DNA of 64,000 nucleotides from Candidatus Stahliibacteriota bacterium. GTDB taxonomy: Bacteria > Hydrothermota > Tepidihabitantia > SM23-42. The notes under the pieces are model-generated. The model searched no databases. It was not told the DNA's origin and saw only the letters and a program-made list of their open reading frames with translations. Both the position numbers and the translations under genes were made by a program. The stretch is from the NCBI GenBank assembly GCA_030609135.1, contig JAUWCU010000003.1, positions 55 to 64,054 on the forward strand. The letters run 5' to 3'. This document shows, in pieces, positions 2,373 through 50,238 of this stretch. Numbering within the stretch: position 1 is the first letter of the stretch; each line of letters starts with the position of its first letter.

Positions 2373-2838
2373 ACTTACCTCCAATTATAAATATATTAAC
2401 AAAAAATATACTTAAGTCAAGACCCAATAATCAAACGACCGAGAATTAAAAGTAGGGCATTTAAGCCCAGTATATCTCGAAGTTTTGAAGATGTGAGGCT
2501 CAGAACCTCTGAACAGATTGTTTAATAGCTGTAGTTGTCCAATTCATTGGACTGCCCGATAAATCCCGCAATCCTATTTATAGAATCTTGATACGAAACG
2601 GGATAAATCCCGCAATTCTATTTATAAAATCTTAATACGAAGCGGGATAAATCATCTGTCTGCCTCAGGCTGAGGCGACTACAATTGATTGAATCATAAG
2701 TGATTGGAAGTCACGCTGGCGCTGTGATTGTTAAAAAGGGAGAGGGAAAAAGCCTGCTCTGAACCTTGTGCTGAATATCATTTCAGTATTGTTTCAGAGG
2801 TGAGGGATAAAGATGTGTTCAAGTTTCTGTTATTAGTA

Positions 2839-2866
2839 TTGACATAAGAGAAGCGCTAATTATAAT
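2839..2866 (+). promoter_or_regulatory. sigma70-type promoter (TTGACA-16-TATAAT), 14 nt upstream of the ATG at 2881 with no SD sequence; near-leaderless
   Basis: TTGACA at 2839-2844, a 16-nt spacer, TATAAT at 2861-2866. The same upstream module gggataaagatgtgtNcaag also precedes the tRNA-Glu promoter. Confidence 0.5.
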
Positions 2867-2880
2867 CATTATACGGTCAT

Positions 2881-5451
2881 ATGAATTATCATATTATTTT
2901 AGTGCTTTTCATAAATAATCTTTCATTTATCCCTGGTATTAACGATACAATTACAATACACCAGTGGCAATATCTGGGTCCTTTTTCAATGGGGATGCGT
3001 GAGGGGATCATCGGCGTCGAGGAAAATATTAGACTTCTTGAGGATTTTGAGCCAGATAAAAGGTCGATATATCCAAGTCTTCTCGTGCAGGGCGGCAAAG
3101 TCATGTGGCGAACAATAGAATCTGCTAATGGAATAGTTAAGATCGAATATGAAAATGTCTTATGGGATAGTATTCAGGATTATTATGGTGCTGCCGGAGT
3201 TCTCTGCGGCGCTTATGCCTACGGTGATTTTAGTAGCGGCAGCACAAGGAGAGCATTGGTTATTGCACAAGATGTTTCTTCCTTCATCTTGAACGGCGTG
3301 AAATTCCCGGGTGATCCCTATAGCAATGGATTTTTGCAGGTCCCGGTTGTTCTAAACGAGGGAAAGAACAGAGTAATAGTCAAACTCAGCGGGTTTGGGG
3401 ACCATGAATTCACATTTAAACTCATCCCCGTACCAGGTCCTTTAATGTTGATAACCAAAGATATTACTACACCGGATTTTTTAAGGGGTGAACCGGTATG
3501 TGCCTGGGCAGGGATACCGATTGTCAATGCGACAAATCAGAGACTCTTTGATATTCAACTTAAAATAGAAGGCGTGAACATTAAAACAGACATTCAAACG
3601 GTTGCTAATATAATGCCTTTTTCAGCGGTTAAGATACCATTGAACATCGAATCAGAAGATAAAATAGAGACAGAAGAGGATAGCATTCTGATAACTATAA
3701 CGGCTTCCTTTGACACTTTTTCTACACAAGAAGATTTCTGGATCAAAGTGAAGCATAGAGATGAAGCATATGTTAAGACCTTTGTCTCTAATATAGATAA
3801 TTCATGCCAATACTATGCGATTCTGCCACCAGAAAACTATAATGAAGATTCATCTTATGCCCTCATAATGACTTGTCATGGAGCCAGTGTTAAGGCAAGA
3901 GGTCAGGTGAAAGCCTATACACAGAAGGATTGGGCTTTTGTCGTTGCGCCGACTAATCGCCGCAGGTTTGGTTTTGACTGGCAGGATTGGGGTAGACTCG
4001 ATTTTCTTGAGGTTCTGGAAGATGTTAAGAAGAATTTCAAGATTGATACAAATAGAATCTATCTTACTGGACATTCTATGGGTGGCCATGGTGCCTGGCA
4101 TATCGGCATAACCCATCCAGATATCTTCGCGGCAATGGCACCTTCTGCTGGATGGACCAGCTTTCAACTCTATGTCCCGTGGTTTCTTCAAAAAAGTGAG
4201 CTCTTTGCGCATCCTGATCTGATAAAGTATCGCGATATGGTATTGCGACAAGACAATCCGCTTTTATTCCTGGAAAACGCATATAATCTGCCGATCTATA
4301 TCTTGCAAGGCGGAACTGATGACAATGTGCCTCCAATCCAGGCAAGAATGTTCTGCAAATATCTGACCAATCTTGGCTATGATTATATATACAACGAGCT
4401 TGAGGGCAAAGGTCACTGGTGGAATATAGATTCCACGCCAGGTACTGACTGTGTGGATTTAAAAGAAATGATGGATTTTCTGAAAACCAAGGTGCGCAAC
4501 CCCTACCCTGAACGTATAATCTTCAAAACCTCAGATGTTGACTGTTCAAATAAGGCATACTGGGTGAGGATCGATGAACTTGAAAATCTATACCAGGATG
4601 GGATAATAGATATTTGGAAAACTGGAATGATAGGAGATCACACCGTGTTTTCAGTGGGACCACGCATTGGGTTCTTGGTGAAAACGAGCAACATAAACGG
4701 ATTCACCGTAGTATTAAATGATAAGGTTATTCCTAAAAGCATGCTAGGTGGAAAAATATGGTTTGAAATTAATGGTCAAAAAATTGCCTTCGACTATAAA
4801 GAAATAAGCGAAATTTCCTTCCACAAAAACAATGTGGGATTTGAAATCGTCAAACCGAAAGACCAAGGCTTGAAAAAACAGAAAAGGTTTTATGGACCTA
4901 TAAAAAAGGCATATTTTGAGCCTTTTGTTCTTGTCTATGGCACAACTGGAGATTCGGTTTCGACCGAGAACAACCTTCACCAAGCACGATTACAGTCTTA
5001 TACCTGGTGGTATCGGGCAAATGGATTTGTTGAGATACTGCCTGACACTGAAGTTACCGAAAAAATTATCAAAAACTATAACCTTGTTCTCTTTGGGAAT
5101 CCTGTAACTAACTCCATTCTCAAGTGGATTAGCTACAGATTACCTCTTCATATTGAAGAAGGTAGAGTGATTGTTGATAGAGATACAATAAGGGGGGATC
5201 TCTGTCTTGTAGAAATATATCCCAACCCTCTAAACCCTGAAAAATTCGTATTATTATATTCAGCAACTACAAAACCCGCAGAGAAATTAATCGGTCTATT
5301 TTCCACACTTTATGCAGGTGCCGGTTTACCTGATTTTCTTGTTTATGATAAATCAGCGCTTAAATACGGATGGGGTGGTGTAAACGCAGCCGGTTTTTTT
5401 GACAAAGACTGGAAATTTGATAGTAAATTGAGTTACTACTCAGAACCTTAA
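2881..5451 (+). CDS. secreted multidomain alpha/beta-hydrolase (S9 prolyl-oligopeptidase / dienelactone-hydrolase-like serine hydrolase)
   Basis: 856-aa ORF with a hydrophobic N-terminus and a GHSMGG nucleophile elbow (GxSxG) within a typical alpha/beta-hydrolase core (YLTGHSMGGHGAW...ILQGGTDDNVP...GHWW). Confidence 0.6.
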   Translation: MNYHIILVLFINNLSFIPGINDTITIHQWQYLGPFSMGMREGIIGVEENIRLLEDFEPDKRSIYPSLLVQGGKVMWRTIESANGIVKIEYENVLWDSIQDYYGAAGVLCGAYAYGDFSSGSTRRALVIAQDVSSFILNGVKFPGDPYSNGFLQVPVVLNEGKNRVIVKLSGFGDHEFTFKLIPVPGPLMLITKDITTPDFLRGEPVCAWAGIPIVNATNQRLFDIQLKIEGVNIKTDIQTVANIMPFSAVKIPLNIESEDKIETEEDSILITITASFDTFSTQEDFWIKVKHRDEAYVKTFVSNIDNSCQYYAILPPENYNEDSSYALIMTCHGASVKARGQVKAYTQKDWAFVVAPTNRRRFGFDWQDWGRLDFLEVLEDVKKNFKIDTNRIYLTGHSMGGHGAWHIGITHPDIFAAMAPSAGWTSFQLYVPWFLQKSELFAHPDLIKYRDMVLRQDNPLLFLENAYNLPIYILQGGTDDNVPPIQARMFCKYLTNLGYDYIYNELEGKGHWWNIDSTPGTDCVDLKEMMDFLKTKVRNPYPERIIFKTSDVDCSNKAYWVRIDELENLYQDGIIDIWKTGMIGDHTVFSVGPRIGFLVKTSNINGFTVVLNDKVIPKSMLGGKIWFEINGQKIAFDYKEISEISFHKNNVGFEIVKPKDQGLKKQKRFYGPIKKAYFEPFVLVYGTTGDSVSTENNLHQARLQSYTWWYRANGFVEILPDTEVTEKIIKNYNLVLFGNPVTNSILKWISYRLPLHIEEGRVIVDRDTIRGDLCLVEIYPNPLNPEKFVLLYSATTKPAEKLIGLFSTLYAGAGLPDFLVYDKSALKYGWGGVNAAGFFDKDWKFDSKLSYYSEP

Positions 5452-29638: not shown

Positions 29639-29690
29639 GATAAATCCCGCAATTCAATTTATAGAATTACAATACGAAGCGGGATAAATA
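29639..29690. repeat. A-type palindromic element GATAAATCCCGC-[AATTCAATTTATAGAATT]-ACGAAGCGGGATAAAT
   Basis: Copies at 2558-2653 (a tandem pair), 8376-8430, 32245-32294 and 36748-36797 (reverse). Flanked here by a TGTAGTCC...CCACTACA unit (29531-29575) and a cruciform GGAGTGCA...TGCACTCC unit (29703-29750). Confidence 0.7.
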
Positions 29691-29811
29691 GGGCGGAGAG
29701 AGTAGATGGAGTGCAACGGCTTGCCGTTGCATGCAGTAGCAAGCTACTGCACTCCGTAGCAAAATCAAGGGATAAGGGATAAAGATGTGTCCAAGGTTTC
29801 TTAATTAAAAG

Positions 29812-34026: not shown

Positions 34027-34220
34027 CTGCAAATACGTCTTCAACAATTCAACAGGACTATTGTCATTACGAGTGTAGTCGAGAACCCTCAACATGATTA
34101 TTGTTCCTCTCACCTTGTTCGAGACAGGCGAGCGAAGTTGAGAACTTCCGCAATATGGGTGATGGCCCTAGATAAAAATGTCATTGCGAAGGCGTAGCCT
34201 GAAGCAATCTCACCTCCTTT

Positions 34221-34324
34221 TGTCAATCAAGCGCGTGAGGGCATAGTATTTGTAGTGGTCGAGTTTACTCGACAAACATCCCTGCACGCTACGGTATTTG
34301 TGCAGAGCAAGCTCTGCCACTACA
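34221..34324. repeat. D-type REP element: TGTAGTGG-[TCGAGTTTACTCGA]-CAAACATCCC-[TGCACGCTACGGTATTTGTGCA]-GAGCAAGCTCTGCCACTACA with a conserved 30-bp upstream arm
   Basis: Near-identical copies at 36388-36478 and 36961-37062. A partial inverted composite lies at 39048-39180. The perfect 8-bp termini are TGTAGTGG / CCACTACA. Confidence 0.75.
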
Positions 34325-34473
34325 TATGTTGGGGTAGGTCTTTACACGAGCGGGACTCTGTTTCATGTCATTGCGAATCCGCCGCGTCATATAGCGGACA
34401 AAGTCCCGCAATGCAAGGATCCTCGATTTTCATTTATTAGAAATATATAGTACGGAAAATCGGGATAGTCTCA

Positions 34474-36373: not shown

Positions 36374-36387
36374 TCCAGGTAAGTTTA

Positions 36388-37064
36388 TAGTATTCGTAGT
36401 GGTCGAGTTCACTCGACAAACATCCTTGCACGCCACGGTATTTGTGCAGAGCAAGCTCTGCCACTACATGTGTTCTTGATTCGTTCCAGTATCCAACCCA
36501 AACCCTTTTTCCATACTCACAGTTATAGTCGCTCGATTCATCGAGCCAATCTAATGGAGCGTCTGATAAATCAGACAACTACAAAGATTAATCAAATTGT
36601 TACATCATATCATTGTAGTTGCTCGATTCATCGAGCCAATTTACGCGGAAAGCCCCTCAGACTAGCATAATTACTGTTTCTCTCACCTTGTTCGAGACAG
36701 GCGAGCGAAGTCGAGAACCACCCTTTGCATTTTTCGCCGCCCAATTCATCCCGCTTCGTATTGTAATTCTATAAATAGAATTGCGGGATTTATCGGGCCA
36801 ATTTACGCGGAAGTATGTAGTCGCTCGATTCATCGAGCCAATCTAATGGAGCGTCTGATAAATCAGACAACTACAGCGCAGCGTATCTTCAGTGAAACGT
36901 GTCTCCAGCGTAGCGTGTCTTCAACAGAGTGTGTTCTCCATTTCTCCCATACTCCTTTTGTCGATCAAACGCGTGAGGGCATAGTATTTGTAGTGGTCGA
37001 GTTTACTCGACAAACATCCCTGCACGCTACGGTATTTGTGCAGAGCAAGCTCTGCCACTACATG
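36388..37064. repeat. BIME-like array of at least seven REP-type units in a 790-bp intergenic region
   Basis: Order: D (36388-36478), TATAGTCG-type C (36515-36600), C (36610-36650), the ctctcaccttgttcgagacaggcgagcgaagtcgagaacc unit (36676-36720, also at 34085-34140), A reversed (36748-36797), C (36815-36885), D (36961-37062). Four track ORFs here are spurious. Confidence 0.75.
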
Positions 37065-37120
37065 TGTTCGGAATTCCTAATTACCAAATTACTCGGTTAC
37101 ACAACTATAAAAGGCTCGTA

Positions 37121-39047: not shown

Positions 39048-39180
39048 TGTAGTGGTCGAGTTTACTCGACAAATATCCTTCACGCTGCTTTTGCCCAACT
39101 GTAGTTGCCTCTGCCTGAGGCAGACAGGCCTGCCTGTGCGTCGCACGCAGACAGGTGATTTATCAGGCTGCATCAATCCG
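39048..39180. repeat. inverted composite REP element (partial D unit, B hairpin and the A-junction GTGATTTATCAGG)
   Basis: Reverse complement of the 32225-32345 architecture. The GCCTCTGCCTGAGGCAGACAGG hairpin equals B-type units at 2656-2683 and 32296-32346. Confidence 0.6.
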
Positions 39181-39382
39181 CCATCTTATGTCATTGTGAA
39201 GGCGAAGTCCGAAGCAATCTCCAAAAAAGAGATCGCTTCGTTCACACTCGCGATGACAGGAAAAAAATGTTACTGCGAGCGGAATCGAGAACCTTCAGCA
39301 GTAGTATAATATTGTTCTCTCCGTTGCTCCGATACTCCCTTTCACCGTTTCTCCCATTCTCCTGTTCTTGCCCGTTATCACG

Positions 39383-39410
39383 TTGACATATAGCCCTTTC
39401 TCGCTATAAT
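39383..39410 (+). promoter_or_regulatory. sigma70-type promoter TTGACA-16-TATAAT, 5 nt upstream of a GTG start
   Basis: TTGACA at 39383-39388, TATAAT at 39405-39410. Confidence 0.45.
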
Positions 39411-39415
39411 ATATA

Positions 39416-40618
39416 GTGTCTCAGCAACTAAATATCTTGGTCACCGGCGCCGCCGGCTTTATCGGCTGGAAAGTCTGCGAACTCCTCCTCACCAAACCAG
39501 AGCTAATTCCGAGTGACATAATGACCAATGACTCAATGACTGTTTCTGTTATTGGCATCGACAACCTCAACGACTACTACGACATCCGCCTCAAACAATG
39601 GCGTCTTGAGCAATTAAAGAAGTTAAATAGTCATTGCCAGGAACCTTCCTCTTCCGTCATTGCGAGGAATCCCGAGTTTGTCGAGGGAGACGAAGCAATC
39701 TCACCCAATCGATTCATGTTTCACAAACTCGACATCGAAGACTACGCATCTCTTAAGAAATTGTTCCAAAAATACTCTGTTCATTCAAAAAGTACCGCAC
39801 AAAGTGCTCATAACCGCCCCGACACTTTGAATAAAAGTGTGGGGGCCAAAACCGCATCTTTGATGCCAGAACCGCCGTTTACGGCAGTGATCAATCTCGC
39901 TGCTCGTGCTGGTGTTCGCTACAGTTTGGAAAACCCGTTTGTATATTATACGACAAATGTCATCGGTACTTTAAACCTTCTCGAACTGTGTCGTGAATTT
40001 GGTGTGAAAAAATTCATCCTTGCATCTACTTCATCACTATATGCCGGACAGAAAATGCCTTTTAAAGAGGAGTTACCGGTGAATGAACCCATATCGCCTT
40101 ACGCAGCATCAAAAAAGAGTGCTGAAGTTACCTGTTATACATATCACAATTTGTATGATATCGATGTGACGATTTTAAGGTATTTCACTGTGTATGGACC
40201 AGCATCCAGACCTGATATGAGTCCCTTGCGTTTCATATCCTGGGTATATCAGGAAAAACCTGTTATCATATATGGAGATGGTACCCAGTCACGAGATTTT
40301 ACCTATGTCGATGACATCGCCCGCGGCACAATAATGGCATTAAAACCTTTGGGTTTTGATATAATAAACCTTGGCTGTGATCAACCCCATGAATTGCTCG
40401 AATTTCTTCACATGATTGAGGAGAAGCTGGGCAAGAAAGCAAAGATTGTCAATGAACCCATGCATCCTGCAGACATGAAAGCAACCTGGGCAGATATCAC
40501 TAAAGCTAAGAAAATACTCGGCTGGCAGCCTTCAGTAAGATTGGAACAGGGGCTCGATACTGCGGTTGTTTGGTTCACAAAAAACCGTACCTGGCTTGCT
40601 GATATCAAGCTCTCTTGA
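39416..40618 (+). CDS. NAD-dependent nucleotide-sugar epimerase (UDP-glucuronate 4-epimerase / CapI-like SDR) with two lineage-specific insertions, one derived from a repeat element
   Basis: N-terminal ILVTGAAGFIG and the catalytic YAASK motif. Compared with the CapI-like core there are extra segments SSVIARNPEFVEGDEAIS and VHSKSTAQSAHNRPDTLNKSVGAKTASLMPEPP. The start is uncertain (GTG at 39416, or the TTG three codons downstream). Confidence 0.7.
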   Translation: MSQQLNILVTGAAGFIGWKVCELLLTKPELIPSDIMTNDSMTVSVIGIDNLNDYYDIRLKQWRLEQLKKLNSHCQEPSSSVIARNPEFVEGDEAISPNRFMFHKLDIEDYASLKKLFQKYSVHSKSTAQSAHNRPDTLNKSVGAKTASLMPEPPFTAVINLAARAGVRYSLENPFVYYTTNVIGTLNLLELCREFGVKKFILASTSSLYAGQKMPFKEELPVNEPISPYAASKKSAEVTCYTYHNLYDIDVTILRYFTVYGPASRPDMSPLRFISWVYQEKPVIIYGDGTQSRDFTYVDDIARGTIMALKPLGFDIINLGCDQPHELLEFLHMIEEKLGKKAKIVNEPMHPADMKATWADITKAKKILGWQPSVRLEQGLDTAVVWFTKNRTWLADIKLS

Positions 40619-40645
40619 CTTTTTATTGAATGGAGGTTACTTAAT

Positions 40646-41566
40646 ATGAATCGTAGTGCAGTGTGTACATGCCCTATTTGCAAGGGTAATGACGTGATAT
40701 TGATGGGAAAACCACAGATCTCTCCTCAAGGTGTCGATATAATAAACAAAGAATATCAGGTCGTAAAGTGTAAAACATGTAACTTCTATTATGTTTATCC
40801 GCAGATTTCACTTAGTGCTGAAGTCTGGGAGAAACTTTATGCGGTTGAGTATTTTAGTAATAAGACATCATGGTGGATAAGAAAAAGAGATAAGGACTTA
40901 AAACAGCGTTTTGACTGGCTTCAAAAATATTGCAGGCATAATATACAAAATTTCCTTGATGTTGGTTGTGGCGAGGGATATACACTCTTAGAAGCTCTTA
41001 AAAGAGGCTGGAAAACATACGGTATTGATATCTCGGATAATAGAGTAGCCGAAGCAAATAATGAACATGTCATCTTTCACAAAAGTGATATATCCCAGAC
41101 TAACTTCCCAACAGACTTCTTCGATTGTATATATATGGATTCAGTGCTGGAACATCTAACAGATCCCTGCCGCCATCTACTTGAAATTAAACGAATACTC
41201 CGTAAAGGAGGAGTTTTGTATATTGGAGTACCGAATGAAGATTGTTTGTTCAACGAGGTCAAAAGGCTTCTCTTCATATTGATGGGTAAGCATAATTTCT
41301 CCGCTTACCTATATCCTTTCAAACGTCCGTACCATATTATTGGATTTACAAAAGACTCCCTACTTAAAATTTTACAAAAAAGTGGTTTTGACATTTTACG
41401 ATTTAGAAATTTTTCCGGTGAATATGAATACAGGAAATTCAAATTTTTTACTAAGCCGTTTTTGGTTAATTTTTTCCTGTTGCCTGTGCACTTAGTTGCC
41501 ATACCACTCAAAAAGAGGATATATCTGGATACAATAGTGACTAAGAGTCATTCATCACGGCAGTAG
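40646..41566 (+). CDS. class I SAM-dependent methyltransferase with an N-terminal zinc-ribbon
   Basis: CPICKG...CKTCNFYY ribbon, motif I LDVGCGEG and a post-I acidic residue (GIDISD). Confidence 0.7.
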   Translation: MNRSAVCTCPICKGNDVILMGKPQISPQGVDIINKEYQVVKCKTCNFYYVYPQISLSAEVWEKLYAVEYFSNKTSWWIRKRDKDLKQRFDWLQKYCRHNIQNFLDVGCGEGYTLLEALKRGWKTYGIDISDNRVAEANNEHVIFHKSDISQTNFPTDFFDCIYMDSVLEHLTDPCRHLLEIKRILRKGGVLYIGVPNEDCLFNEVKRLLFILMGKHNFSAYLYPFKRPYHIIGFTKDSLLKILQKSGFDILRFRNFSGEYEYRKFKFFTKPFLVNFFLLPVHLVAIPLKKRIYLDTIVTKSHSSRQ

Positions 41567-41678
41567 AATAATTAAGCTTTAAACCAGAATATAGAAAAGG
41601 TCATAAATCTGTATATAATCCTTTATCTAATTTGATTCACTATATAAAGGTCTTCTCCCTGATTCACACAATTCTTTT

Positions 41679-42578
41679 ATGCTGGCAACTAATCTTACCG
41701 TTCATATAGATTCTTCCTACATCCCTTGGCGAGTTCAAGCTGGAGAAGAACCACAGTATTTGTGGCGCTGGGCAATGGCATACGGTGAGTCATACTGGCG
41801 GAATTTTTATGCCTGCACCACCAAGGTGCAATGCCTGCGGAATTATGCAGACACAACTTATGACGACACCTATTTTGATGGTGTCTTTGTTGACAATTTG
41901 CTCCACTTCGTTGATGGTTTGAGTTATGGTTACAACATTTATCCTGCACAATATCGTCCTTATCCGGATACCAATAACTTTGCACAATGGGATGCAAACT
42001 TACGTGCGGCAGTAGATACTTTTGTGCAAACAGTAAGCGCTGAATACCATAACCCTAACACACCTTCTGGTCATCCTTGCGAGGTTTTAGCAATAGGCAA
42101 TACAAACCGGGCACATTTGGTGGATGAATATGCTACTTTATGGAAAAATTTTCTGCAATATCTGGATGGCGCAGTGGAAGAATCTGATTTTGCGCGTGCT
42201 GATATAGAATTTGGTCGCTGGCAGAGAATGATTCATGAAATGGCGATTGCCGAATCATTGGGCAAGATATGCCTCATTCATGTGCCCTGTTCCACAGAAT
42301 TTTATAGTCCTAATGACCCTTTGAGTGTCTACTATTATGACTCAACTCAGATGATTTATGGTTTTGCAAGTTACTTGATGGCTTACGATTCTGTGAGTCA
42401 TTTCGCTTTAAATAAGAATCTTTCTCCCAATTATGCCCATATCTACTGGGCACCGATTTTTTCAATTTGTTCAATTTCTGAATTGGTGAATAGGCGGTTT
42501 CGGAATAGATATTTCGGCTTAAATGTTTCTGGAGATTTTCCCATAAAACAATTATACATATTTTTTGCGAGAACTTAA
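41679..42578 (+). pseudogene. N-terminally truncated paralog of the secreted GH114/TM1410-like hydrolase at 45127 (no signal peptide; starts mid-domain)
   Basis: Aligns to residues about 155-450 of the 45127 protein. It contains a 112-bp tract (41763-41874) that is 100% identical to 45647-45758 while the flanks are diverged. It ends at a TAA that is followed immediately by G9. Confidence 0.45.
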
Positions 42579-42587
42579 GGGGGGGGG
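42579..42587. repeat. poly-G homopolymer (G9)
   Basis: Nine consecutive G in a roughly 35%-GC region, directly after the stop codon of the truncated paralog and 72 bp upstream of the -35 of the SBBP gene promoter. Confidence 0.8.
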
Positions 42588-42658
42588 TAATATGAGGACC
42601 TTTTTATCGAAACAATTATCGGTAAAAATTTTAAGACCCCAAAAAGTGCATTCGCGTG

Positions 42659-42687
42659 TTGACAAAGACAAAACCAATGATTATAAT
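42659..42687 (+). promoter_or_regulatory. sigma70-type promoter TTGACA-17-TATAAT with a 70-nt leader and a GGAGG SD
   Basis: TTGACA at 42659-42664, TATAAT at 42682-42687, start ATG at 42759. Confidence 0.5.
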
Positions 42688-42758
42688 TATAATATGAATT
42701 TTGATACCACGAAGTTTTGGGGAAAATTAAATTATTACTAAAAAGACAAGGAGGAAAT

Positions 42759-43733
42759 ATGAAAAGAGTGGTCATTGGGATATGTGCAATAGTGATAGGG
42801 TTTATGCCCTTGTCCATCTATGGTTCTGAAATTGCAACTGTAACTTTGGAAACCTGGATGAATGCTTCCCAGGGTTTTGAACCAAACCTTGGTCAGATTG
42901 GCGATTTTGAAGGGAATGTGGTTAATAATATCTTGTGCGCTTTCAAGGGTAATGGACTTGGTATATTCATTAATGAAAAAGGGGTAAGTTATGTTATTTA
43001 TCAAGCGGAAAAAATCTTAAGAGATGAGTCCCAGAGAATTGATTTAAGAGAACCTGAAAAAAATCTTATCCACTATGCAAGGATTGATGTGGAGCTTGTG
43101 AATTCCAATTTTGAAAAGTCAAAAATCGTTTATGAAGATGAGCTACCCGGATATGCGCATTATTATTTGCCACAATGTCCTGATGGTATTCTTTATGTGA
43201 AAAGTTTCAGAAAGGTGCGGATTAAAGAGATATATCCGGGCGTTGACTGGATATGGAAATATGAAGATGGACGGTTGCATCATGAATTTGAGGTCAAACC
43301 TGCGTCTGATGTTTCAAAGATAAAGATGAAGGTTAAATGGGCTGATGTTGAGATAAGCGAAAATGGTAGAAAACTTATATATTCTACGCCACTTGGTAAG
43401 ATAAAAGATGGAAATATACTTGGTTATGAAAATCCGAAATCCAAAATCCGAAATCCGAGACCGATTGATATTTCTTATATAAAAAATGAAGATGGGATAA
43501 TTTCCTTTGAAATAAAGAATTATTCCGGTAAAAATCCTCTAATTATTGACCCACCCCTTGCACTATTATGGGGGACATATTACGGAGGCAATGATCCTGA
43601 TCGTGGCTATTCAATTACAACCGATAATTCAGGTAATATTTTTGTAACTGGGACCACTTATTCAACAGAATTTTCCCACACAAGACCCCGGTGGTGGTGC
43701 TTATTATCAAGGTACAAAAGCAGGATATTTTGA
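42759..43733 (+). CDS. SBBP-repeat beta-propeller surface protein, N-terminal part (signal peptide, unique 270-aa domain and the first repeat); reading frame breaks at the T4 run at 43677-43680
   Basis: Start at the internal Met [22 protein letters not shown], preceded by GGAGG. After TTYSTEF the frame yields SHTRPRWWC..., whereas the +1 frame continues the repeat consensus [14 protein letters not shown]. Deleting one T restores a single 770-aa ORF. Confidence 0.6.
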
Positions 43734-44800
43734 TGTATTTGTTTTAAAGTTTACAAATACAGGGGTTCGGCTTTGGGCGACATATTACGGAGGAAATGAC
43801 AGAGATGGGGGCGCTTCAATTATAACTGACAATTCAGGTAATGTTTTTGTAGGTGGAACCACCTATTCAACAGATTTTGCCACACAGGACCCTGGCGGTG
43901 GTGCTTATTATCAAGGAACATTTGCAGGTGTTGGTGATGCATTTATTTTGAAGTTTACAAATGTTGGTATTCGCCTCTGGGCAACATATTACGGCGGAAA
44001 TGATAGTGATATGGTGTGTTCGATTACCACTGATAATTCAGGTAATGTTTTTATAACTGGGTGGACTCTTTCAACAGATTTTCCCATACAGGACCCTGGC
44101 GGTGGTGCCTATTATCAGGGAGCAAATGCAGGTTATAGAGATGCATTTATTTTGAAGTTTACAAATACGGGTGTTCGTCAATGGGCAACGTATTACGGAG
44201 GAAATGCTGGTGATTGGTGCAATTCAATTACAGCGGATAGTTCAGGTAATGTTTTTATAGCCGGATACACCTATTCAACAAATTTCCCCACATATGACCC
44301 CGGGGGAGGTGCTTATTATCAGGAAACACTTGGAGGTGTTCATGATGCATTTATTTTGAAGTTTACAAATACCGGTGTTCGGCAAAGGGCGACATATTAC
44401 GGCGGAAATAATGAGGATATGTGTAATTCAGTTACAACTGATGCTTCAGGTAATATTTTTGTGACTGGATACACTTTTTCACCAGATTTTCCCACATATG
44501 ACCCCGGGGGAGGTGCTTATTATCAGGGAGCACTTGCAGGCGGATATGATGCATTTGTCTTGAAGTTTACAAATAGCGGTATTCGCCAATGGGCAACGTA
44601 TTACGGAGGAAATGATGTGGATTGTGGCTTTTCAATTAAAACCGATAATTCAGGTAATGTTTTTGTAACTGGACTAACTGTTTCAACAAATTTCCCAACA
44701 CAGGACCCTGGCGGTGGTGCTTATTATCAGGGGACACATGCAGGTGTTGGTGATGTATTTCTTTTGAAGTTTGAAACTTCACTGGGAATTGTAGAGGAAA
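43560..44800 (+). repeat. intragenic tandem DNA repeats (144-bp period, about 8 copies, high nucleotide identity) encoding the SBBP blades
   Basis: Recurrent strings include gcaacatattacggcggaaatga, ggtgcttattatcagg and gcatttattttgaagtttacaaata. Confidence 0.7.
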
Positions 44801-45069
44801 ATACTAAAAAGAATGAGCCTTCGGTTCTAATTATTTCTTCTATCTTTATCAACAGAATACGAATAGACCTTTCATTATCTTCTAAAAAACCCATGGCTCT
44901 TATCCTTTATAATTTATTGGGGCAGAAAATCTTTTCAAGGTCTTATCCTGAAACTAAGTCTCTTATTATAAGAGGCAGAGAGATTGAAGAATTGAGTAAA
45001 GGAATATATTTCTTATCTGTCTATTCAGGAAAAAAAGAGATTGGCAGGGTTAAGCTGATAAAGAGATAA
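43948..45069 (+). CDS. SBBP-repeat beta-propeller protein, C-terminal part (about 7 x 48-aa repeats plus a T9SS C-terminal sorting domain); the frame is open upstream to about 43680
   Basis: Repeats follow [68 protein letters not shown]. The C-terminus ...[23 protein letters not shown] is a typical T9SS CTD. Confidence 0.65.
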
Positions 45070-45126
45070 AGGCTCCATGTTTGCGCGTTGGTTTAATAAT
45101 AACTTTGTAATAATTGGAGGTGTGCG

Positions 45127-47931
45127 ATGGGGCGATTTAAGGTAATTCTTATCGTGATTGTAATCTATTTAATGGCTCAGATTGTTTTTGCTGAGCCCAC
45201 CGCAAAGACTTATATCTTTGCCGCATCCCAATATATGTTTTACCATCCCTGGTATGGTGGAAACCCTCTGGATTCGCTTTGCAAACACTTTGATGTGATT
45301 ATCTTTCATGACTGGAATAGGGATACAATCCCTACGATTCGGGATAGCACAAAAGTAGAATGGCGTAGAAATAATGCGCCAATACTTTTATTGTATAAAG
45401 ATGCAATGACTATATGTGGTCCAGGTCGTCCCTGGCATCCTGAACCAGACCCGACAATTGGTGGTCGTGAAACTGTTGGTGGGTATAATCATTTTGATTC
45501 GTTATTAAAGCAAAATTACCCGTCAGATACTTTCTTTATGTTAGCGACGACCGTAGGTTCTCAGCAAACTTCCCATTATGATACCATCGTTATCGGTAAT
45601 GATACTCTGCATCGTGTCAAGGCTGGTAGTGATCCCTCCTGGCAGTGGCGCTGGGCAATGGCATACGGTGAGTCATACTGGCGGAATTTTTATGCCTGCA
45701 CCACCAAGGTGCAATGCCTGCGGAATTATGCAGACACAACTTATGATGATACCTATTTTGACGGTGTACTCATTGATAATTTGTTACCCTTAAGAAGTCT
45801 GCATGGCTTATATCCACAACAATATCCCGACAATAACAGTTTTAGAGAGGCGGTTTATTCTTTCACCCAGACCGCCTGCTCTGAATATCATAATCTTACA
45901 TCACCTCCGGGTAATCCCCGTTCAATTCTTGGTACTGGCAATTTGAACTATATTTACTTAACACCTCTAAGTGATACAGTATGGAAAAAGCTTCTCCATA
46001 TTTTAGATGGCGGTATGGAGGAAGGCTCAGATGGCTTACACAGATTGTCTTTTAATGACTGGCATAGAATTATGCAGGAAATTGCAATGGCTGAATCTTT
46101 AGGTAAGATATCTTTTATACGTGAGGCAGTTGACTCATGCGAATACGATACAATTATCAATCCCTTTGGATTACTTTCGTTTAGTTCTACAAATCTGATG
46201 TTTGGTTTTACAAGTTATCTTATGGTCTTTGATTCTATGGCGCACTTCTATTTTTGTCCACGGGAAGGTCCGCATTACGCGTTTATCTGCTGGGCGCCAG
46301 TCTTAGATATTGATATTGGTAAGCCAATGGGGCGGTACATCCTGACCGCAGACACCCTCGCATATCGTTATTATGAAGGTGCAGCAGTATTTGCCAATCC
46401 GTGCAGTCTTTCATCAGTAACTGCAGGTTTCCCCGGTGATACTTTGTTGTTCATAAAGACAGCATCCTGCACAGTGGATGTTACAATTGACCAGTTAATA
46501 CTTCCTTCTCATACAGGGGTAATTGGACTTTATCCATTAAACTATTTCCAGGCAAGCGGTTTTGAGCCTGATGACCGTTTGTGCTGGGAGAACTACTGTC
46601 TTGAGGTTGAGGGGGTTACAAATTGCTATGCAAAAAGAGTGCAGGGTATTCCGCCAAACGGTGTGACACCACATTCCGGTCAATGGATGTATAAGGTTTA
46701 TGGTCAGGATGAGAGCACTGATACAAGTTTTGTCAGCTTCAAGGTCTTTCCGTACGATGTGCTGATTGAAGATCCCACTTATCTGTCTTTCTGGATATAT
46801 GTTGAAGATGCACCCGGCGATTCAGCACCGATTGGTATAGACTGTCTACTAAAGAGCGGCAAGCGGTTGAGTGAGTGGACAAAATTTGGCACGATTTTAG
46901 ACCAGTATGGTAAAGAAATAAATCCCGCTGACCGCCGTGTGCCCGAAGGTGCGTGGTATCAATATGTGTTTACATTTAACCCGGCAGTCAACGAAACGAT
47001 TGACCACATTGAGTTGGTTTATGATGGCTCGCAGATTTCAGAGACCGGCGATTTTTGTGCGTATATTGATGATATAGAGATACTAACTCAATTCCCGATA
47101 CTCGATACCTGGTATGCGGAGAAGTTTCCGGTTGGCAGTCCCATCAATAATCCTAACAATTATGACCCGAACTTCTATATGAACTTCATTGCTCAAGGCG
47201 ATTCTGTTAGATTGATTATCAATCCACAGGGTGATGGTGGTGAGGGTGCGCACTGGGTTAACCCGGCGCCAGGGATTAGAAACAACATTACTGATATTTC
47301 TGTTGATTCATTCACAACAGTCATCTGGAGTCAGTATGATAAGGCACACAGTCTGATTCTTTCGCTATTTGTCCATGATAACCAGGAGAATAACCGATGG
47401 CTTATGTATGCAAAGAATGCGAGCAATTGGTGGCCACAAACCGGCTGGGTTGATATGGGAGATACGGCGAGGCATTATAATATGTGGGAAGGGTTTTTTA
47501 GGAACATTAGAGATGATTATACTGCGGAATACGGCGGTGAAGTTGAACCCGAATCTATCATAGAGTTGAGACTGGAGCACTTTGCCCGGTCAGAATGGGT
47601 TGGTGATTCCGGTGGGACAATCAGGAATCTTTTCATCGTGCCCTTCACCCAGGAATTTACCATAAATCAAAATCAGACCTATACCAATATGCCATATGTA
47701 GCACTGAGGACCAAAGTGACTTCTGAGATTGTGGACTCAATGAATATCCATCAGGATTATAGCGATTCGCTTACGGATTCTACTGGCTGGATTGCCTATG
47801 ATACTTCCTATTGCTGGTATCTGCGAGAGGGAGAAGGAAACAACACAGTTTATATTCAATACAAGGTTGGTGGTTTCAGCGAGAGTCCGGTCTATTGCGA
47901 TACCATCATCTTTGATAAAACTTTGACTTGA
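45127..47931 (+). CDS. secreted 934-aa protein; N-terminal half is a putative glycoside-hydrolase-like TIM-barrel (GH114/TM1410-like, DGVxxDN motif), C-terminal half unknown
   Basis: Signal peptide MGRFKVILIVIVIYLMAQIVFA. YFDGVLIDNLL resembles the GFDGVFLD motif of GH114/GHL families. The assignment is tentative and made without a search. Confidence 0.4.
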   Translation: MGRFKVILIVIVIYLMAQIVFAEPTAKTYIFAASQYMFYHPWYGGNPLDSLCKHFDVIIFHDWNRDTIPTIRDSTKVEWRRNNAPILLLYKDAMTICGPGRPWHPEPDPTIGGRETVGGYNHFDSLLKQNYPSDTFFMLATTVGSQQTSHYDTIVIGNDTLHRVKAGSDPSWQWRWAMAYGESYWRNFYACTTKVQCLRNYADTTYDDTYFDGVLIDNLLPLRSLHGLYPQQYPDNNSFREAVYSFTQTACSEYHNLTSPPGNPRSILGTGNLNYIYLTPLSDTVWKKLLHILDGGMEEGSDGLHRLSFNDWHRIMQEIAMAESLGKISFIREAVDSCEYDTIINPFGLLSFSSTNLMFGFTSYLMVFDSMAHFYFCPREGPHYAFICWAPVLDIDIGKPMGRYILTADTLAYRYYEGAAVFANPCSLSSVTAGFPGDTLLFIKTASCTVDVTIDQLILPSHTGVIGLYPLNYFQASGFEPDDRLCWENYCLEVEGVTNCYAKRVQGIPPNGVTPHSGQWMYKVYGQDESTDTSFVSFKVFPYDVLIEDPTYLSFWIYVEDAPGDSAPIGIDCLLKSGKRLSEWTKFGTILDQYGKEINPADRRVPEGAWYQYVFTFNPAVNETIDHIELVYDGSQISETGDFCAYIDDIEILTQFPILDTWYAEKFPVGSPINNPNNYDPNFYMNFIAQGDSVRLIINPQGDGGEGAHWVNPAPGIRNNITDISVDSFTTVIWSQYDKAHSLILSLFVHDNQENNRWLMYAKNASNWWPQTGWVDMGDTARHYNMWEGFFRNIRDDYTAEYGGEVEPESIIELRLEHFARSEWVGDSGGTIRNLFIVPFTQEFTINQNQTYTNMPYVALRTKVTSEIVDSMNIHQDYSDSLTDSTGWIAYDTSYCWYLREGEGNNTVYIQYKVGGFSESPVYCDTIIFDKTLT

Positions 47932-47986
47932 AAATTGTTTTTAAAATAAGAAATTCTGTAACAATTAGAACTCTTGTTATTGCGAG

Positions 47987-48014
47987 CCCACACACCAATG
48001 CATTGGTGTGCGGG
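47987..48014. terminator. bidirectional stem-loop terminator between convergent genes (CCCACACACCAATG/CATTGGTGTGCGGG)
   Basis: 12-bp GC-rich stem embedded in a TTGCGAGCC...GGCGTGGCAATCTC repeat unit that is also present at 25136-25178. Confidence 0.5.
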
Positions 48015-48053
48015 CGTGGCAATCTCTATTTAGGATATCTGCAATTAAAAAAT

Positions 48054-49031
48054 CTATTTATTAACTTCATTAGCTAAGTACCAATCTATCATTCTTCGGA
48101 ACCCTTCTGTTATCTCTATCTTTTGTATAAACCCCTGTTCTCGTATTTTCTCTGCTTTATGGTGTGTAGCGGTAGCGAACTTCTTCATTCTTGCGGCGGT
48201 AATGGGAAGGTTGCGTCCTGTTATCTTGGCAAGGAGATCAAATATGCTGCCGAGAGATACTGCAAGAAATAAAGGTAGTTTGATTTTCGGTGCACCATAA
48301 GGCAGGCATGTGCCAATCACGTCTACTATCTGAGCTATAGTCATTTGTGGTTCATCAGAATAAGAGAAAATCTGAATACCAGGTTTTAGTTTGTCAATCA
48401 AGAATATGTTTGCATCCACTAAATTTTCTACATAAGCAACCGATTTTATATTATCACCTTTACCAACAAAAACAAATTTCTTCTTGTATATTTTGTCAAT
48501 TAAATTATAAACATTCGCGAAATTATTTGGCCCAAATATTACAGATGGTCTAATAATTATTACATTTCTGCTTTTGTCATCATCAACCCACTTCTGTATA
48601 ACTTTTTCTGCAGCCAGTTTCGATTCACCATAATTATTATCTGGTTGCGGAATAGTATTTTCAGTGCTGGGTTCGTCGTTTGTTCCGTATACTGCCACAG
48701 AGCTATAGAAAATCAGCTTCTTGATCTGCAATTTGGCTGCGCAGTCGAGCAGCATTTGGGTACCGGTTTCATTTACGTGAAAGAATTCTTCCCTTGTGAC
48801 GCCAAAATCATGGTGTTTTGCTGCGAGCGTAATGATTAAATCCACGCCCCGCGCTGCTTTAAGGATATCTTCAGGACATAGCATATTACCAACAAGGCAA
48901 GTGCAGAGCTTATTCAGTTCTTTTGGACCAGGGTTGATATCCAAGCCAATGACTTCATGTTTTTTCTCGACAAGCTTCTTAACCAGAAATTGACCGATAA
49001 AACCTGTGGAACCTATCACCAGTATTTTCAT
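48054..49031 (-). CDS. NAD-dependent epimerase/dehydratase (SDR family)
   Basis: GSTGFIG N-terminal Rossmann motif and YxxxK (YGESK). Confidence 0.7.
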   Translation of the reverse strand: MKILVIGSTGFIGQFLVKKLVEKKHEVIGLDINPGPKELNKLCTCLVGNMLCPEDILKAARGVDLIITLAAKHHDFGVTREEFFHVNETGTQMLLDCAAKLQIKKLIFYSSVAVYGTNDEPSTENTIPQPDNNYGESKLAAEKVIQKWVDDDKSRNVIIIRPSVIFGPNNFANVYNLIDKIYKKKFVFVGKGDNIKSVAYVENLVDANIFLIDKLKPGIQIFSYSDEPQMTIAQIVDVIGTCLPYGAPKIKLPLFLAVSLGSIFDLLAKITGRNLPITAARMKKFATATHHKAEKIREQGFIQKIEITEGFRRMIDWYLANEVNK

Positions 49032-49044
49032 GTGGATATTATAG

Positions 49045-50238
49045 CTAAAATGGATAATATTTCAATATTTCTCTTACTACTTGTTTTGAATCGAATTTTT
49101 GAAGAGCTATATCTCTACTTGCTTGGCCCATACTGGAAATCAACCCTGGGTTAGCAATATACTTTTCCATGGCTGAGGCAAGTTTTGCTGAATCCTTAAT
49201 TGGCACCAGAAAACCATTTATACCATCCTCAACAACCTCCCTACAGCCAGTTGAATCGGTAGTAATTATGGGCATTCCCATTGCGGCACCTTCTAATAGT
49301 GATAAAGGAAGCCCCTCTCGATAATAGGATGGCAAAACTATCACATCTGCCTTTTCATAATAGGTTTTTATATTATCAGTCATGCCAAAGTATTTCACTG
49401 TGCCTTCTTTATTCCATTTCTCCAATTGCTCTGAAGATATGCCTTTTGGGTTTTGTAGATCTACAGGACCCAATAACCAGAAATCAACGTTATTATATTT
49501 CTTGCGGAGCGTATATGCAGCATCGACAAACTCTTTAATCCCTTTGTCCCATAACATGCGGGCGGCAAGAATGAAGGTGACTACTTTTTTTCGCTCGTGC
49601 TTACGTGGCGAAAATTTGGCGGTATCAACACCTGTTCCTGGAATCACGCTTGTTTTCTGTTTATCTACCATTTTATGTTCAAGAAAGTAATTTCTATCAT
49701 CCTGATTTTGGAAAAATACATGTTGGGAGAATAGCATAGTTCTTCGGTAGAGAAATCTTACAATCTTTTGAACCCAGAACTTCTTGAAACTAGTACCAGT
49801 AAAGACATAACCCAATCCTGGAACCATATTGTAGATATGTCTAACACGCGATACGCGGGCTGCTATTGTGCCATAGATCACAGGTTTAACAGTGAAGTGT
49901 TGGACTATATCTGGCTTGTGGCGTTTATAAATGCTAAGGAATTTGAGAAATAGTACAATATCCTCAAATGGATTAATGCCACTGCGTGTAATCTGTATAT
50001 CTAGGTGCTTAATACCGTATTCTTGAAAATGTTTTGCATAGGAGTCAAACGGAGCAAGTGCAAATACCTGGTATCCACGCTTTACCAGTTCTTTAAGAAG
50101 CGGTAAACGAAAATTGAAAAGATACCAGGATGTGTTACTTGAAACTACAGTTTTTTTTGGTTTATCGTGAGACACTCGGGTTATTATATACGTTGGCATA
50201 ATAAAGTCAAGGATTCTCAAATGATTATTTCTTGACAT
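49045..50238 (-). CDS. glycosyltransferase family 4
   Basis: GT-B fold with the C-terminal motif EGLPLSLLEGAAMGMPIITTD. Confidence 0.7.
   Translation of the reverse strand: MSRNNHLRILDFIMPTYIITRVSHDKPKKTVVSSNTSWYLFNFRLPLLKELVKRGYQVFALAPFDSYAKHFQEYGIKHLDIQITRSGINPFEDIVLFLKFLSIYKRHKPDIVQHFTVKPVIYGTIAARVSRVRHIYNMVPGLGYVFTGTSFKKFWVQKIVRFLYRRTMLFSQHVFFQNQDDRNYFLEHKMVDKQKTSVIPGTGVDTAKFSPRKHERKKVVTFILAARMLWDKGIKEFVDAAYTLRKKYNNVDFWLLGPVDLQNPKGISSEQLEKWNKEGTVKYFGMTDNIKTYYEKADVIVLPSYYREGLPLSLLEGAAMGMPIITTDSTGCREVVEDGINGFLVPIKDSAKLASAMEKYIANPGLISSMGQASRDIALQKFDSKQVVREILKYYPF

Follow-up and report, generated by a model that had tools for sequence, protein, structure and literature searches.

Ectopic gene conversion is known from tufA/tufB of Salmonella, babA/babB of Helicobacter pylori and antigen families of Mycobacterium tuberculosis, and silent-cassette variation from pilE/pilS of Neisseria, tprK of Treponema pallidum, the msp2 pseudogenes of Anaplasma and vlsE of Borrelia. 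In homology-facilitated illegitimate recombination a homologous anchor is combined with microhomologies of 3–10 bp; the minimal efficient processing segment (MEPS) measures some 25–35 bp (PMC6382021). Known poly-G switches lie within open reading frames (ORFs), between the -35 and -10 elements, or next to the transcription start, and in the tpr genes of T. pallidum eight G's or fewer permit transcription (PMC7864442). GHL15 belongs to the hypothetical glycoside hydrolase-like (GHL) families of Naumoff, which are predicted TIM-barrel glycosidases and for the most part uncharacterised (PMC5765458). Here we compare with these systems a locus in a 64,000-nt stretch (the window) of contig JAUWCU010000003.1 of a Candidatus Stahliibacteriota bacterium, in which a 299-codon ORF of the GHL15 family shares a perfectly identical tract with a longer paralog downstream and ends at a run of nine G's. 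This ORF comes from the interior of a GHL15-family paralog with a presumed glycosidase-like TIM barrel, and is most probably no dedicated cassette. We think it likely that the locus is a captured, partly decayed surface-protein block, the left edge of which cuts one GHL15 paralog and the right edge the other, with gene conversion and slippage added. A seemingly designed arrangement would then resolve into microhomology capture, short-patch ectopic conversion and homopolymer slippage, all ordinary processes.

An earlier examination of the letters alone (the sequence-only reading) had described the short ORF as matching only the central part of the 934-aa paralog and as having no signal peptide. 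Both statements hold: the ORF, found again at the same place, aligns solely to amino acids 138–395 of the long protein (48% amino acid identity, E 2e-75) and has no hydrophobic leader. Family homology of the fragment starts 16 codons before the ATG, straight after an in-frame TAA that abuts the codons for FDSL, and stops at about 42467. Relative to family members the fragment lacks the signal peptide, about 120 N-terminal residues and at least about 60 C-terminal residues, and no C-terminal family homology hidden by a frameshift was found in any frame of 42300–42800. Because homology begins after an in-frame stop and ends without the C-terminal region, the ORF is an internal gene fragment. The segment 42461–42749, which spans the end of the ORF, the G-run and the next gene's promoter, has no match in the fetched loci or elsewhere in the window, and no counterpart in the related loci L007 and L005 described below. 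The retained core is well preserved, with 44 of the 46 family-invariant residues kept; intact members score the same in a leave-one-out test. An AlphaFold model made from a 12-sequence alignment has low confidence (pLDDT 53, pTM 0.52) and places strands beta1–beta3 at amino acids 31–92, a region absent from the fragment; in this model the family's signal peptide and some 120 extra N-terminal residues would make up beta-alpha units one to three of the barrel. The fragment is presumably non-functional. A search of the whole 64-kb window gave no further GHL15 fragment.

The 5′ end of the fragment coincides with the left edge of a 6.4-kb strain-variable block, which sits between the methyltransferase and epimerase genes of a polysaccharide-synthesis cluster. 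In three related assemblies from ENA (L011, L012 and L015) a methyltransferase gene 89–96% identical in nucleotides to that of the window is followed by 56 nt and then by epimerase and glycosyltransferase family 4 (GT4) genes, both on the minus strand, whose window counterparts lie at 48054–50238. Homology of these assemblies to the window ends at 41646 and resumes at 48057. Compared with this block-less lineage, the window is 91–96% identical on the left flank of the joint; on the right flank, over the length that L011 covers, it is 88.5% identical. At the left junction a 25-nt relic agrees in 24 of its 25 positions with the last 25 nt of the L011/L012 epimerase gene, and is unlike the tail of the window's own epimerase gene at 48054. 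It contains TTTGATTCACT (41631–41641), which on the plus strand is also the family's coding of the HFDSL motif, giving a microhomology of 11–16 nt; HFDSL is coded with an invariant TTTGATTC in all family members, and the relic overlaps TTTGATTC(A/G)CT. Microhomology and a remnant of replaced resident sequence, the marks of an illegitimate joint, are thus both present here, and because the relic and the microhomology join the antisense epimerase end to a GHL15 gene, we take the 5′ end of the fragment to be such a joint.

Most likely, the block was captured by illegitimate recombination, and one-sided homology in the epimerase and GT4 genes may have helped. The left joint would have fused the HFDSL codons of a GHL15 gene to the 3′ end, in antisense, of the epimerase gene resident there, stripping the GHL15 gene of its promoter, its signal peptide and its first 120 or so codons; on the right the block is cut too, at about 47925 within the second GHL15 gene. 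Both the relic and the identities of the two flanks fit the idea that incoming DNA replaced the epimerase side of the resident sequence. We infer homology-facilitated illegitimate recombination, and capture in this lineage as opposed to loss in the relatives. As in described cases of that process, there is a microhomology joint on one side, homologous diverged genes on the other and a remnant of the resident gene left behind; unlike the typical 3–10 bp, the microhomology here measures 11–16 nt. The locus thereby documents a junction resembling homology-facilitated illegitimate recombination. A composition profile gave no anomaly across the block, and Rfam and tRNA scans gave no match near the locus.

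Inside the block, the fragment and the long paralog carry a tract of exact identity, both copies on one contig, 3.9 kb apart and in direct orientation. The sequence-only reading had put this tract at 112 bp within paralogs of 70–80% DNA identity and had attributed it to recent gene conversion. The identity is real and the attribution stands, with other figures: the exact match is 102 bp, the pairing of 41763–41874 with 45647–45758 is 1 nt out of register and not identical, and the codon-aligned copies have 54% nucleotide and 43% amino acid identity outside a 139-bp block. That block, of 94.2% identity, consists of the tract and the next 37 bp, and the first two mismatches 3′ of the tract (41864 and 41867) set GAC GAC against GAT GAT. 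The tract holds 33 identical codons in succession; elsewhere the same codon is used at just 39 of the 98 positions with identical residues. Nine family members from other genomes are 59–75% identical in nucleotides to the tract, and the longest exact run in the conserved block over 45 family pairs is 28 nt (median 12). The chance of 102 successive matches is about 1e-13 at a per-site identity of 75% and about 5e-9 at 80%; with the other members at 59–75%, P is below 1e-9. To the left 13 of 30 nt match; the 37 nt to the right differ at 8 positions, the family background, and give way to DNA that cannot be aligned. A short patch with such abrupt edges argues for gene conversion, as do the codon and run statistics together with the breaks of k=31 contigs at both tract edges (below). 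The tract codes for WRWAM.YG..W..FY.C..KVQCLRN....YD.T.FDG, the motif that the family conserves best, so identity at the amino acid level is weak proof and the DNA evidence is stronger.

Ectopic (non-allelic) conversion of the 102-bp tract is therefore well supported. The two copies would have exchanged a short patch, presumably with RecA involved, and the roughly 46% divergence of the flanks would block branch migration and keep the patch within the block of about 140 bp. Every other family member matches the fragment DNA only inside this conserved block, and since DNA-level alignment of the family exists only there, the patch is confined to it. The direction of conversion is not told by the 8 flanking differences, which favour neither copy, nor by the tract, which is about equally far from all relatives. 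The case is like tufA/tufB and babA/babB in its perfect patch between diverged copies on the same replicon, with abrupt edges and in the best-conserved segment. It is unlike them in that one partner is an internal fragment without a promoter, at the margin of a genomic island, the background identity is 54%, the patch is only about 100 bp, and no amino acid changes outside the conserved motif. It offers a well-documented natural case, in an uncultured phylum, in which a homology island of some 100 bp set the limits of conversion between copies otherwise 54% identical.

Other assemblies of the locus were found through look-ups of cluster mates and of neighbouring proteins; together with the window they represent three pipelines: an NCBI metagenome-assembled genome (MAG), JGI and Logan (k=31). 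A look-up of the window-encoded fragment as an exact protein gave no match; its 90% cluster mate P0012 led to the JGI contig L010 (sample 3300040951), which spans 41148–44017 and carries the same 299-aa ORF with one G-to-V change. Over 2872 bp L010 is 99.9% identical to the window, with one substitution, a G-to-T single-nucleotide polymorphism (SNP) at 42070 (L010 position 923) that makes the non-synonymous change Gly131Val in PSGHPC inside the fragment, and one indel, G11 for G9. Three Logan contigs are 100% identical to the window. L016 (SRR14923491) corresponds to 39128–41791 and ends 30 nt, that is k-1, into the tract; L013 (SRR14876856) begins exactly at 41762; and L014 (SRR14923480, recorded in three samples) begins at 41834, 30 nt short of the tract end. 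The contigs break k-1 from both tract edges and none breaks inside, as a true two-copy exact repeat would make them do; this argues against an artefact of polishing or collapse.

The G-run lies directly 3′ of the TAA stop, as had been noted, and 71 nt (not 72) upstream of the -35 element of the SBBP promoter, or some 107–115 nt upstream of the likely SBBP transcription start. It is the sole G/C run of at least 7 in 64 kb (there are 25 runs of 5, two of 6 and none of 7 or 8), where 0.04 runs of at least 9 are expected for independent, identically distributed letters, and 67 kb of related loci contain no G/C run of at least 7. The window, L013 and L014 have G9 and L010 has G11, so the earlier suggestion of a slipped-strand element is borne out: with G9 and G11 alleles in assemblies that are otherwise one SNP apart, the run is hypermutable. 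Slippage in replication after the stop codon would give rise to both alleles. With all frames checked, no long ORF crosses the run or depends on its length, and the 49-aa ORF that follows is probably spurious. The run shares with contingency loci a slippable, polymorphic homopolymer and does not share their placement in an ORF or core promoter; it is probably without function and its length presumably neutral. In having 9–11 G's upstream of a surface-protein gene, varying by population, the locus is like tprE/G/J/L of T. pallidum and porA/opc of Neisseria meningitidis; unlike these, the run here follows the stop of a fragment, far from the likely start, and the downstream gene is frameshifted.

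The long paralog has the N-terminus MGRFKVILIVIVIYLMAQIVFA|EP and is itself incomplete, contrary to its earlier description as full-length. It is 97.6% identical to its orthologs in L007 and L004 up to 47922; the homology ends abruptly there, at the right edge of the block, and a stop follows 6–9 nt further on, while the orthologs continue for 100–750 residues with NHL repeats, FlgD_ig and a type IX secretion system (T9SS) sorting domain (from 7675 onward in L007 and from 3105 onward in L004, where the gene is fused into a 1671-aa ORF). For annotation this means that neither the 299-aa nor the 49-aa ORF should count as a gene and that the 934-aa protein should be seen as cut short. In a comparison that took in L001, L002, L004, L005 and L007, the closest relative of the long protein shifts along its length: amino acids 21–80 are about 85% identical to L002 and 121–160 are 88% identical to L001, 200–360 and 420–460 are at most 55% identical to any known member, and 540–934 are 85–100% identical to L004 and L007, both contigs of Stahlbacteria. 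The GHL15 family recombines, and its central barrel region is fast-evolving. In this variable centre the long copy has 39% amino acid identity to the fragment and 46–49% to copies from other genomes; being less like the fragment than like the others, it was not copied from the fragment. The long GHL15 gene and the epimerase gene are convergent, and a GC-rich near-perfect palindrome between them (47979–48023, CCCACACACCAATGCATTGGTGTGCGGG) probably serves as a bidirectional terminator.

The earlier label GH114/TM1410-like holds as a distant resemblance at the level of the TIM-barrel fold; the sequence family is PF14885 (GHL15). Precomputed annotation assigns PF14885 to nine of ten homologs, and a direct scan gave 39 bits for P0002, 61 for P0003, 32 for P0005, 27.6 for P0020 and 55 for P0023. 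The long copy scored 24.0 bits (E 4e-5), below the gathering score of 27 bits, and the fragment had no match, so that the window copies appear to belong to GHL15 by transitive homology through their homologs. For GH114 (PF03537) there is no Pfam match even at E <= 10, and a profile search of PDB sequences retrieved GH114 chains at E 0.44 only, which is not significant. A Foldseek search with the low-confidence model gave 9joo (a GH168 fucanase) at E 2.5e-5, 2aam (TM1410) at 1e-3 and GH191 at 2e-3, with TM-scores of at most 0.48. The likeness to GHL15 thus seems to lie in homologs above the family threshold and in a predicted structure that retrieves GH168 and TM1410 (now GH191) folds. Unlike typical GHL15 proteins, this sub-family has a long C-terminal extension, to which relatives add NHL repeats and a T9SS tail.

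Table 1. Coordinates in the window of the features of the GHL15/SBBP locus
Feature	Position	Strand	Remarks
Strain-variable 6.4-kb block	41647–48053		comprises both GHL15 copies, the SBBP gene and a spacer; absent from three related assemblies
Epimerase 3′-end relic at left junction	41622–41646	-	25 nt, L011-type; contains TTTGATTCACT
GHL15 fragment, homologous core	41631–42467	+	by tblastn; corresponds to long-copy amino acids 123–395
299-aa ORF	41679–42578	+	starts at internal conserved Met of FMLAT motif; no Shine-Dalgarno sequence, no leader
Conversion tract, fragment copy	41762–41863	+	102 bp exact
Conversion tract, long-gene copy	45645–45746	+	102 bp exact
Rest of family-conserved nucleotide block	41864–41900	+	pairs with 45747–45783; 8/37 mismatches, the background level
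G9 homopolymer	42579–42587	+	length-polymorphic; G11 in L010
49-aa ORF	42592–42741	+	starts 4 nt after G-run; gene-finder call in three assemblies; overlaps SBBP promoter; no L007/L005 counterpart
Sigma-70-type promoter of SBBP gene	42659–42687	+	perfect TTGACA-17-TATAAT
SBBP beta-propeller surface-protein gene	42759–45069	+	DUF7948, six 204-bp SBBP repeats, weak T9SS tail (Por_Secre_tail)
Long GHL15 paralog	45127–47931	+	934 aa, signal peptide; mosaic; cut at about 47925 relative to orthologs
Lineage-unique spacer	47932–48053		122 nt, no counterpart in relatives; precedes complete epimerase gene (48054–49031, -)

The SBBP gene between the two GHL15 copies is also damaged. A +1 frameshift at about 43668–43677 splits it into ORFs at 42759–43733 and 43948–45069, and lies in a short A2T4 run (ACAGAATTTTCCC, 43665–43687) at the first of the six tandem repeats. 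The stop at 43733 is shared by L010, L013 and L014, and the ortholog in L007 is intact (838 aa). In the WOR-3 MAG Kmv43 a full-length GHL15 gene of 581 aa stands before the SBBP gene (L005) and another after it (L002). L007, an 84-kb metagenome contig 81% identical to the window across the locus, starts 196 nt 5′ of the SBBP start, inside an N-terminal GHL15 fragment that lies 75 nt before the start codon. From these two arrangements we conclude that the order GHL15–SBBP–GHL15 is ancestral and that the upstream copy has decayed differently by lineage. The fragment in L007 (1–122) and the full-length gene 5 kb downstream (4988–5109) are identical over the first 108 nt, and the contig probably ends at the fragment because of this repeat. 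In the comparison with related genomes that had been proposed, L007 gives the best argument for recurrent exchange between an upstream remnant and the downstream gene; the four paralogs of Kmv43 show no long identical tracts. Elsewhere in Kmv43, in L005, the gene upstream of GHL15, for a T9SS-tailed protein, is tandemly duplicated (38–1611 and 1992–3565, 77% identity), and in another lineage (L018, 3266–5316) a GHL15/T9SS gene adjoins IstA/IstB, the transposase genes of an IS21 element. Such surface-protein loci appear prone to rearrangement.

Several of these observations weigh against a captured and decaying block. A core with 44 of 46 invariant residues in an open frame of 299 codons means either that truncation was recent or that the fragment is still under selection. 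The L007 case hints at a recurrent arrangement or exchange rather than an accident, and a G9 where runs above 6 are otherwise absent is easier to explain by selection. Identity of some 72–78% in the background block, with runs of at most 28 nt, is barely sufficient to seed RecA-mediated exchange, and the preference for capture over deletion in the relatives hangs on the relic. The least probable of the alternatives, in our judgement, is an artefact in which similar paralog segments were collapsed or bubbles popped to make the tract, and a homopolymer consensus error made the difference in G-run length. De Bruijn assemblers do merge near-identical paths, Illumina quality falls in and after long G-runs, and our evidence comes from assemblies and not from reads. 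We set against this the same fragment sequence from three pipelines, Logan contigs that break at 41762 and 41863 and nowhere within the tract, and a neighbouring 37 bp whose 8 mismatches stayed uncollapsed. The G-run is internal to contigs, has unique sequence on both sides and is present in the output of all three pipelines, and its lengths differ by 2 nt, not 1; on these grounds the sequence-only reading's own suggestion of a two-colour sequencing or assembly artefact for G9 finds no support. A better case, still an unlikely one, can be made for the run as a contingency switch that tunes either transcription of the SBBP gene, for example through a shift in the phasing of a regulator site further upstream, or, as a Shine-Dalgarno-like sequence, the translation of the 49-aa ORF. 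The polymorphism stands on a near-invariant background, in a genome that seemingly avoids long G/C runs, upstream of a surface-protein gene as in the poly-G tracts of T. pallidum tpr genes and 4 nt before an ATG. The run is, however, neither in nor beside the core promoter, a perfect-consensus promoter should need no activator, and the SBBP gene is frameshifted in every assembly of this locus seen; the 49-aa ORF has no homolog and no counterpart in L007 or L005, and length changes alter no long ORF.

Somewhat less probable than a switch is that the 299-aa ORF is a functional cytoplasmic GHL15-like protein, shortened at the N-terminus and kept by purifying selection. Its open frame and retained invariant residues would fit, there is a promoter-like site at 41592–41619, and a database protein, P0005, begins near the same position. 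Such a protein would lack the region that the low-confidence model assigns to beta1–beta3 of the barrel and also the conserved C-terminal region, an in-frame stop stands immediately 5′ at the junction, and the fragment has no Pfam match, unlike its relatives; the sole polymorphism seen, G131V, is non-synonymous. The ORF has no Shine-Dalgarno sequence either, an indecisive criterion here as a core of at least 4 nt precedes just 18 of the 43 window ORFs. The sequence-only reading had suggested a silent donor cassette. Such a promoterless archive copy would donate to the expressed long gene and so diversify a secreted or surface protein, as in pilS/pilE, tprK and msp2, and this we regard as very unlikely. 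In its favour, the fragment has lost promoter and 5′ end with frame and conserved residues intact, the 102-bp anchor shared with the expressed copy immediately precedes the region in which the family varies most, the long protein is a mosaic when set against its relatives, and in L007 too a GHL15 fragment, independent of this one and with 108 identical bp, stands beside the SBBP gene. Against it, this is the one fragment in 64 kb and it lacks an anchor on the 3′ side, since exact matches outside the tract reach 11 nt at most, below the MEPS of about 25–35 bp (PMC6382021). The variable region of the long copy is closer to other genomes (46–49%) than to the fragment (39%), the fragment's 5′ end is accounted for by the block junction, and both the SBBP neighbour and the long copy are damaged. 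No chimeric or variant long proteins occur among the six matches in a collection of 5.8 billion proteins, a weak search since the long gene was recovered from one MAG only. The likeness to silent-cassette systems is a promoterless partial copy near an expressed paralog for an exported protein, with the shared segment bordering a variable region; unlike them the locus has a single copy in the 64 kb, one anchor, a boundary explained by an island junction and no variant expression loci in those six matches, and the host is an environmental WOR-3/Stahlbacteria-like bacterium with no immune-type selection known. If the cassette reading were true, the range of programmed surface variation would come to include free-living candidate phyla. 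We give equally little credence to a broader form of it, prompted by exact identity of at least 100 bp between fragment and expressed gene in each of two lineages. Here partial GHL15 copies beside SBBP genes would be kept as recombination partners, the tract would anchor, on the 5′ side, a primitive cassette system by which an exported glycosidase diversifies its hypervariable catalytic-loop region, and the G-run would be a second contingency element.

Two further observations concern the window at large. Dispersed repeats of 50–120 bp and 90–100% identity occur in both orientations and mostly between genes, at 34214–34330, 36952–37068, 36387–36475, 36526–36583/36818–36875, 32138–32194/32348–32404, 32287–32348/39164–39103, 2602–2653/8377–8428/36794–36744 and 29639–29699. 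Neither tRNAs nor members of any Rfam family, they may represent small mobile elements or elements like repetitive extragenic palindromic (REP) sequences. The ORFs starting at 39416, 34510 and 21361 (plus strand) and at 49031 (minus strand) have a TATAAT-like hexamer a few nt before the start and no Shine-Dalgarno sequence, which suggests that they yield leaderless mRNAs.

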